Shown here: positions 56,981 to 57,709 of the stretch, piece by piece
Position numbering within the stretch: position 1 is the first letter of the stretch
How the letters are laid out: every line of letters starts with the position of its first letter
From: Candidatus Methanomethylicaceae archaeon
Lineage (GTDB): Archaea > Thermoproteota > Methanomethylicia > Methanomethylicales > Methanomethylicaceae
NCBI GenBank assembly: GCA_015660995.1
Contig: JACTUC010000002.1
Coordinates: 43,480 to 107,479, forward strand
Direction of reading: 5' to 3'
Length of the DNA: 64,000 nucleotides
The notes under the pieces: generated by a model
Seen by the model: only the letters and a program-made list of their open reading frames with translations
Databases searched by the model: none
Told to the model about the DNA's origin: nothing
Program-made: the position numbers and the translations under genes

Positions 56981-57448
56981 CTAATCGCCCAAATAAATTA
57001 GTTCAACCCTGCGTTTGCTTAGATATACCTCAAATTTGCTTAATATATCCATGCCTAATACACAAGGAGTGTGTCTCAACATTATCTCTCTATTTTTTGG
57101 CTCTAAATTTTCGGGAGGGCATATTACACTAAAACCACTATTATGATTTATTTTAAGTTCATCATTGTTTGAACTAAATGTAAGAGTTACGAGGTAATTG
57201 AGTGTTTTGTGCTTAAATAATCCACCAAATCCTATAGAAATATCCTTAGCAAAAGGCAAAGTACCACAATCGATACCAGCCAGTGTTGCCTCCATTTCTG
57301 TAATTAATGAAACTTTGGAACCAGTATCCACCAAAAAACGAACAATTTTGCTTACGCCATATGCAGGAACTTCAAATAAAACAGGAATTATAGGCTGCCC
57401 ACAAACATTTATCCCTTTAAATACACGGCTTGAGGGCAACGCAAACAC
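56981..57448 (-). CDS. Retropepsin-like (clan AA) aspartic protease
   Basis: FLVDTGS catalytic motif, GFGG flap, C-terminal LGMDIL. Confidence 0.85.
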   Translation of the reverse strand: MFALPSSRVFKGINVCGQPIIPVLFEVPAYGVSKIVRFLVDTGSKVSLITEMEATLAGIDCGTLPFAKDISIGFGGLFKHKTLNYLVTLTFSSNNDELKINHNSGFSVICPPENLEPKNREIMLRHTPCVLGMDILSKFEVYLSKRRVELIYLGD

Positions 57449-57454
57449 GAGTTC

Positions 57455-57709
57455 CTAAAAAAACATTGCAATTTCTTCTGCTTGCATATATTTCATTAGT
57501 ATACTATTTGGATCATATCTTCTAGCAAAAGATAACGCTTCTTCTGACGTATCCTCGCTTTTAATGACTTTCTGTTTGTGTATGATAATCCATTTATTGT
57601 TGTATTCTTTCACTAGCCGATCATAATTGTCATTAAGAAATTGCAGGTTTTTTATTGAATCTACGAATAGACTTTTTGACAACAATTTTACACCTCTATC
57701 GAGATTCAC
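57455..57709 (-). CDS. DUF5678-like small protein
   Basis: N-x-x-FL-x-x-NY-x-x-L-x-x-x-Y-x-x-KW-x-x-I-x-x-x-x-VI pattern; 6 bp upstream of the protease. Confidence 0.65.
   Translation of the reverse strand: MNLDRGVKLLSKSLFVDSIKNLQFLNDNYDRLVKEYNNKWIIIHKQKVIKSEDTSEEALSFARRYDPNSILMKYMQAEEIAMFF

Follow-up and report, generated by a model that had tools for sequence, protein, structure and literature searches.

Retropepsins are among the best-studied enzymes of virology. To our knowledge, the role of their many free-standing prokaryotic relatives is almost unknown. Described proteases of this kind include APRc (RC1339) of Rickettsia conorii and the members of COG3577, COG5550, TIGR02281 and TIGR03698, which share a retropepsin fold of one lobe that has a flap, one D-T/S-G motif and an LG-x-D motif. 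The Rickettsia enzyme is membrane-anchored and autotransporter-like. In addition, a retropepsin-domain protein has been linked to the type III CRISPR systems of the Sulfolobales (PMC3973734).

Several other systems are relevant to a free-standing retropepsin that is encoded next to a small protein. In HIV-1 a short polypeptide, p6*, is encoded directly upstream of the retropepsin, and the hydrophobic residues of its C-terminal tetrapeptide restrain the viral protease, as described in PMC8794111 and in references given there. p6* is covalently joined to the HIV-1 protease and is removed by autoprocessing. In type II toxin-antitoxin systems such as VapBC, Phd-Doc and epsilon-zeta, the last with its omega repressor, the effector gene is tightly coupled to a small gene upstream of it, and these modules are mobile, patchily distributed, present in multiple copies, prone to decay and found among other such modules. 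The eukaryotic protein Ddi1 combines the same protease fold with a small N-terminal module.

The locus considered here lies in the window, which is the whole stretch of 64,000 nucleotides that was analysed, and consists of a gene for a small DUF5678 protein (the partner) followed by a gene for a protease. As in APRc and the related families, the protease has a one-lobe retropepsin fold with the shared motifs; it differs from APRc, which has no DUF5678 partner, in being a soluble protein of 155 amino acids whose gene always follows a partner gene. The likeness to p6* lies in the position of the small polypeptide directly upstream of a retropepsin and in the layout of the window, where both ORFs share one frame with a single TAG between them. 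The two systems differ in that the window proteins are separate, that the in-frame layout is not conserved in the window family and that there is no sequence similarity to p6*. What makes the locus of interest is that a prokaryotic retropepsin here has an obligate, co-inherited partner from a large protein family and is carried on mobile elements. The reading preferred here, to which a probability of about 40% is assigned, is that the two genes form a mobile module resembling a toxin-antitoxin system or a zymogen acting in trans, in which the partner would hold the protease inactive, probably by means of its C-terminal tail, which would mimic the product.

The partner and protease genes

The two genes are adjacent on the minus strand, as follows.

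57455-57709, minus strand: DUF5678 partner gene (PF18929), 84 amino acids from a GTG at 57709, ending ...EEIAMFF-TAG
57449-57454, minus strand: spacer GAACTC, 6 nt, from the TAG stop of the partner to the GTG start of the protease
56981-57448, minus strand: protease gene, GTG start, 155 amino acids, single-domain and retropepsin-like (clan AA)

The original prediction described a small gene located 6 bp upstream of a co-oriented gene for a protease with a DTG motif, and this is the arrangement found in the list of ORFs, in which the two genes occupy the same frame. An alternative start for the partner, a TTG at 57685, gives a protein of 76 amino acids and is the start chosen by other gene callers. 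An AGGA motif that extends across the stop codon of the partner could serve as the ribosome-binding site of the protease gene. Both genes are taken as real because the partner-protease stretch is identical in 8 independent contigs from peat metagenomes and homologues at 45-62% identity share the synteny of the window.

Comparison with Pfam, which had been proposed as a check of both family assignments, upheld that of the partner (28.7 bits to DUF5678, PF18929, for which the gathering cut-off is 23.2) and left the protease below the cut-offs. The protease scores 23 bits against gag-asp_proteas (PF13975, cut-off 28.2), 17 bits against Asp_protease_2 (PF13650, cut-off 24.3) and 14 bits against RVP, also below the cut-off, as well as 17.1 against TIGR02281 of NCBIfam (cut-off 57.95), and it exceeds no curated family cut-off in Pfam or NCBIfam. 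Its relatives match TIGR02281 and TIGR03698 weakly, and 19 of 21 members of the protease family match PF13650 at E below 0.01. Its motifs and its fold place the window protease in clan AA. The catalytic motif FLVDTGS occupies residues 38-44 (D41-T42-G43-S44), the flap IGFGG residues 72-76 and the motif LGMDIL residues 131-136; DTGS, IGFGG and LGMDIL are invariant in the alignment of its relatives. None of the four residues of the DTGS motif varies among the 10 close homologues, and 21 wider ones all retain the aspartate and glycine. Since each chain of 155 amino acids has one DTG only, and a retropepsin fold with a single DTG per chain needs a dimer to form an active site, the protease is implied to be a homodimer.

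Conservation of the pairing

Close homologues of the protease are rare, as nine only were found among 5.8 billion proteins. On every contig of this set that includes upstream DNA, a DUF5678 gene is located directly upstream of the protease gene. A scan of GTDB genomes yielded 12 further close-family loci, 11 of which have both genes (the protease being broken in one of these, L025); the remaining locus, L012, has a partner without a protease. The pairing is kept in 16/16 close relatives in which both genes are readable, and in every close relative with readable upstream DNA the partner is immediately upstream and co-oriented, with a gap of -43 to +62 nt.

The same arrangement extends across the phylum. 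Proteins with a DUF5678 domain have a patchy distribution in the Thermoproteota, being present in 52 of 301 genomes and reaching 5-7 copies in some. Among the 30 best DUF5678 loci of the phylum, the gene is followed immediately by one for a D[TS]G protease in about 22, and 19 of 21 such downstream proteases match Pfam aspartic-protease families. By coordinates, a protease is next door to at least 42 of the 70 assessable DUF5678 hits in the 301 Thermoproteota genomes, and all but one of these proteases are just downstream on the same strand, the exception being a convergent pair. When the comparison starts from the protease, DUF5678 is found upstream of 28 of the 34 strongest hits in the Thermoproteota. 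The pairing is conserved well above chance, and the statement in the original prediction that it recurs in many prokaryotes is borne out, as is the conserved co-occurrence that was to be looked for. The partner family is large, with 6,591 clusters at 50% identity that match at E 0.001 or better. Full-text searches of the searchable literature found no paper describing the pairing of DUF5678 with a protease.

The divergence of the partner is congruent with that of the protease, with a Mantel r of 0.90 over 30 pairs and of 0.69 within the close family, and none of 2000 permutations reached either value. This congruence indicates that the two proteins are inherited as a unit; as a pattern in sequences, it is a mark of co-inheritance and not proof of binding.

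The C-terminal tail of the partner

The original prediction drew attention to the hydrophobic ...AMFF end of the partner, and the wider family justifies that attention. In 108 of 127 representatives with a single DUF5678 domain, at least three of the last four residues are V, I, L, M, F, W or Y, and the consensus of the tail is [KE]-x-[VIL]-x-[LMF]-[IFVL]-[LF]-COOH. A free hydrophobic C-terminal tail is a hallmark of DUF5678 proteins across the family and their most distinctive feature. The type of tail tracks the clade of the protease, with AMFF accompanying DTGS, QLIL accompanying DTGAS, and VMLL accompanying DSGST or DSGAT.

In one variant of the partner (L008-type), the chain runs on past the tail as AMFF-RSSPI, and the tandem DUF5678 'polyproteins' P0014, P0015 and P0020 have internal hydrophobic linkers that are similar to the tail. 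Judged from their sequences, the extended variant and the internal tails look like cleavable sites. It is conceivable, if unlikely, that the two genes encode a precursor and its processing enzyme, in which case DUF5678 would be the natural substrate of the protease and would be cleaved at or near the tail, or between repeats, so as to be matured or activated for a non-toxic cellular role. Besides the tandem proteins and the variant with five residues after AMFF, the co-variation of tail type with protease clade is consistent with such a relationship, and so is the composition of the tail, since retropepsins are specific for hydrophobic-hydrophobic sites and the tail is similar to the cleavage sites of aspartic proteases. 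In most members of the family, however, the last residue of the tail is itself the natural C-terminus, which leaves no residues to be cut off there. Moreover, no downstream function is apparent for a matured DUF5678 protein, and the mobility of the module and the decay of its genes better suit a selfish or conflict module.

DUF5678 domains also occur in three other forms, exemplified by P0084, P0142, P0014, P0015 and P0095: fused to receiver domains of response regulators, as tandem repeats of two or three copies that are joined by hydrophobic linkers, and behind a Phd/YefM-like head, which scores below the cut-off.

Predicted structures

The AlphaFold2 (AF2) model of the protease part has a pLDDT of 88. 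Its best match in the PDB by Foldseek is Rickettsia APRc (5c9f, E 5.5e-7), followed by the proteases of FIV, RSV and EIAV and the RVP domain of Ddi1 (3s8i, 4z2z, 2i1a), and all of the top 20 matches are of retropepsin type. The model of the partner (pLDDT 85.9) begins with N-terminal helices, which are arranged as a helical hairpin when folded in the fusion described below. A beta-hairpin, one helix and one strand follow and make up a beta-beta-alpha-beta core, and the chain ends in the unstructured C-terminal tail EEIAMFF. No solved structure like this fold was found in the PDB by Foldseek, the best E being about 1, and a search of PDB sequences with the partner profile gave no significant match (best E 0.035, to a designed protein). 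The fold does match predicted DUF5678 proteins in BFVD at a TM of about 0.6. These predicted proteins with the DUF5678 fold (TM about 0.6) occur in pandoraviruses and on several phage metagenome contigs.

An in-frame read-through fusion of both ORFs was used as a device to fold the two parts together, and for no other purpose. The alignment for this model comprised 8 paired in-frame fusions together with protease-only rows; an unpaired MAFFT alignment was left out of the folding, as it smeared the small proteins over the protease. Read-through fusion as a general natural product was rejected, for the two ORFs share a frame at only 9 of 21 junctions, which is about the proportion expected by chance, and most of these in-frame junctions have further stops. 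At the window junction, both ORFs are in one frame and are separated by the single TAG. The fusion model is compact, with a pTM of 0.83 and a pLDDT of 88. As this pTM exceeds what would be expected for domains that are not placed relative to each other, the model suggests that the partner and the protease pack together. The linker and the last two residues of the tail have a pLDDT below 50, so that the model speaks neither for nor against the tail positions suggested in the original prediction, in the active site or in the dimer sheet; the model is also a monomer without the dimeric cleft. Given this low tail and linker pLDDT and a monomer-only model, we infer the binding of the two proteins and the role of the tail rather than read them from the structure.

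A compact fusion model is also consistent with regulated proteolysis, in which DUF5678 would be an adaptor or activator, and not an inhibitor, that recruits or switches on the protease upon a signal. This arrangement is regarded as quite unlikely. The fusions of a receiver domain (of response regulators) to DUF5678 in P0084 and P0142, which score above the Pfam cut-offs, suggest that the domain can be under signalling control, and the eukaryotic Ddi1 offers an example of a targeting domain combined with the same protease fold. Against it, the fold of the partner does not resemble that of any known adaptor domain, ubiquitin-like ones included (Foldseek against the PDB gave a best E of about 1), and a patchy, multi-copy, transposon-borne distribution with decayed copies is unlike that of housekeeping regulators. 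With Ddi1 the locus shares the protease fold and the presence of a small N-terminal or upstream module, but DUF5678 is not ubiquitin-like, having no beta-grasp match by Foldseek against the PDB, and the window has two separate genes.

One further locus, L048:345-1725, encodes a small protein that scores as DUF5678 and ends in ...MGMAGG; it is located 14 nt upstream of a ThiF/E1-like gene, which takes the place of a protease gene. The domain has another partner at this locus, in an arrangement that recalls ubiquitin-like tagging systems. The idea taken from its GG end and the ThiF/E1-like gene, that the window partner is ubiquitin-like or Ddi1-like, was rejected since the AF2 model of the partner has no significant match in the PDB.

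The transposon

The pair is located on an element of 4,965 bp (56919-61883), of which it is the outermost cargo at the left end. The features of the element and its insertion site are as follows.

56691-56764, minus strand: tRNA-Gln(CTG), host gene beside the insertion site
56911-56918: left 8-bp target-site duplication AGATTTCG, immediately outside the left end
56919-56943, plus strand: left terminal inverted repeat GGTTCTGTGTAGTCTTCGTTTGTTT, 37 nt past the protease stop codon
57917-58225, plus strand: predicted membrane protein, 102 amino acids, other cargo, with a second copy on another contig of the same genome
58287-59154, minus strand: two overlapping cargo genes with weak matches below cut-off
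58287-58694, minus strand: protein of 135 amino acids, the second gene of the overlapping two, with a weak winged-helix match below cut-off
58678-59154, minus strand: protein of 158 amino acids, the first of the two, with the zinc-protease motif HEILHLNGVQH (HExxHxxGxxH) and an archaemetzincin match below cut-off
59779-60891, minus strand: IS6-family DDE transposase, 370 amino acids, with N-terminal SWIM and zinc-ribbon domains
61004-61620, plus strand: cargo genes for an AbrB/MazE-like protein of 58 amino acids and a coiled-coil protein of 145 amino acids, 3 nt apart, all matches weak
61859-61883, minus strand: right terminal inverted repeat, whose outermost 13 nt are those of the left end
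61884-61891: right 8-bp target-site duplication AGATTTCG, where native sequence resumes

The transposon on which the original prediction had placed the pair is confirmed by its inverted ends, its 8-bp duplication, its IS6-family transposase and the empty site in relatives. The inverted repeats begin with GGTTCTG and are imperfect; of their length of about 25-28 nt, the outermost 13 nt (GGTTCTGTGTAGT), at 56919-56931 and 61871-61883, are exact. In four related genomes the site is empty, so that marC, tRNA-Gln and TFB are adjacent with a short spacer; these genomes have a single diverged copy of the target (...TTTCGAAAGC...), and homology to the window restarts at the right end of the element. 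Between the tRNA-Gln gene and the TFB gene, the element stands out as a low-GC island of 35-39% between flanks of 52-57%. The transposase scores above the cut-off of PF13610 (DDE_Tnp_IS240; 58.6 bits, cut-off 27) and just below that of NF033587 (123.8, cut-off 125). The element is an IS6-like transposon with passengers. It resembles IS26 and IS257 of the IS6 family in its DDE_Tnp_IS240 transposase, GGTTCTG inverted repeats and 8-bp duplication; it differs from a typical IS6 element, which has a single gene and a length of 0.8-1.5 kb, in its length of 4,965 bp and its passengers, which amount to about eight ORFs on both sides of the transposase gene.

Some of the other cargo is of interest in its own right. 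The overlapping genes at 58287-59154 may, from their sequences, be a second cargo pair of a protease and a partner. The genes at 61004-61620 look like another antitoxin-like pair on the element, through weak matches. The second copy of the membrane-protein gene is 94% identical in DNA and 89% in protein; it stands alone at L065:5150-6320 (contig C14 of genome G000), where it is followed by a degenerate copy of the left end of the transposon. Three copies of a repeat of about 40 nt (GTCAACTATaCGATAAAgGTCTTCTgGGCc) flank neighbouring genes at L065, in a cassette-like layout.

Five other loci of the close family (L009, L010, L015, L017 and L021) have an IS6 transposase gene, or a fragment of one, next to the pair, and a more distant IS6-type gene adjoins the wider-family pair at L038. 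The same 13-mer end is found about 70 nt after the protease at L021. The position of the pair at the very end of an element, beside the inverted repeat, in both the window and L021, together with the IS6 genes or fragments at the five close-family loci and the one wider-family locus, would fit an accessory function, in which the pair would act on behalf of the IS6-like element, much as the protease of a retroelement acts for its own element, and might for instance process the transposase or keep it under control. This explanation is considered very improbable, as most pairs of the phylum have no transposase nearby (IS240-type DDE domains were found by Pfam in only 3 of 130 ORFs neighbouring pairs) and the pair is also seen in other surroundings, such as next to cas genes. 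IS6 elements, moreover, normally need the transposase alone. At L060:2272-2560, in the relative G024, a fragment that is 84% identical to the C-terminus of the window transposase is present beside tRNA-Gln. The tRNA-Gln site appears, from these sequences, to have been targeted more than once.

Host populations and gene neighbourhoods

The window belongs to an archaeal genome of 1.63 Mb that is 98% complete and is often encountered in peat metagenomes. The close relatives of this genome bear the label Bathyarchaeia. In four peat or wetland metagenomes, read depth is even across the element and no joint corresponding to the empty site was seen. No RNA run was found to contain the stretch. The element is identical in 8 contigs and is fixed in all peat samples examined, which show no sign of its recent movement or loss. 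The pair is absent from a genome of the same genus, and decayed copies are found at L025, L030, L038, L051 and L053.

Genes that recur near the pair encode PIN, HicB-like, Fic/DOC, RHH and IS6 proteins, and these neighbourhoods have a toxin-antitoxin flavour. An RHH-like gene (below cut-off) is located just upstream of the pair in some subclades, an arrangement similar to that of the omega repressor. On one metagenome contig (L001:5706-12402), the pair precedes a cas6-cas8b-cas7-cas5-cas3 operon at a distance of about 600 nt. Neither protein matched PADLOC-DB 2.0 at E up to 0.1.

A proposed toxin-antitoxin-like module

The original prediction interpreted the pair as a protease toxin-antitoxin or anti-virus module. 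The recurrence of the pairing, the transposon context and the conserved tail on which that interpretation drew have been observed, and the role itself is put forward here conditionally. The reading as a toxin-antitoxin-like module is favoured because of the strict gene order, the co-inheritance, the conserved tail, the compact fusion model, the mobility, the neighbours and domain fusions, and the precedent of p6*. As in a toxin-antitoxin system, the two genes are a conserved unit in which a small gene adjoins that of the proposed effector. By analogy, the order and coupling of the genes, their co-inheritance and mobility, their patchy, multi-copy and decayed distribution and their neighbours may all be counted as toxin-antitoxin-like features. 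The locus differs from type II systems in that its effector is a predicted aspartic protease and in that searches of Pfam and, with Foldseek, of the PDB revealed in the window partner no domain for DNA binding or autoregulation of the kind that antitoxins possess. No aspartic-protease toxin was found in the searchable literature, and the module is accordingly without precedent there.

According to the preferred reading, the two genes would together make up a single self-contained module that moves horizontally and whose action resembles that of a type II toxin-antitoxin system or of a zymogen acting in trans. The 'toxin', or effector, would be the product of the downstream gene, the homodimeric retropepsin-type protease. 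The DUF5678 protein that is encoded upstream would be a dedicated, stoichiometric partner that binds the protease and keeps the enzyme inactive, with its tail (..E-E-I-A-M-F-F-COOH) most probably lying in the non-prime subsites of the substrate cleft as a product mimic. If the partner were lost or degraded, the free protease would cut cellular proteins or those of an invader, and the outcome would be a more stable carrier element or an aborted infection. We infer both the toxicity of the protease and this trigger.

If the partner does inhibit through its C-terminal tail, the pair would represent a new class of toxin for the study of toxin-antitoxin systems and defence, and the partner would be a natural protein inhibitor scaffold for enzymes with the retropepsin fold. 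The pair would also offer a prokaryotic comparison for the silencing of retroviral proteases before maturation. Were the tail truly a pseudo-product, the logic by which p6* controls the HIV protease would be found in a free-standing prokaryotic module. That the pair founds a toxin-antitoxin or abortive-infection class of its own, with a retroviral-type protease as the effector that is checked by a consumable pseudo-product tail, is a more ambitious proposal and a doubtful one at present.

Protease genes lacking a usual start codon

In several close relatives, a peptide at the N-terminus of the protease, FKFxGxV..RPxIPVLFEV, is encoded upstream of any in-frame ATG, GTG or TTG. These loci are L016:1487-1560, L009:1650-1720, L014:1258-1330, L001:5937-6010 and related ones, and at L016 there is no ATG, GTG or TTG start anywhere ahead of DTGS. 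Seven loci share a GGTG(A) motif whose GTG lies exactly 10 nt ahead of the F-K codons and one base out of frame. The sequence NTT-TAA, which is like the +1 frameshift site of RF2, is present in three of these seven loci and missing in four, and an RF2-like +1 frameshift, considered as an explanation for the start-less protease ORFs, fits 3/7 loci only. The peptide FKFxGxV..RPxIPVLFEV is conserved as amino acids, and its codons have synonymous changes.
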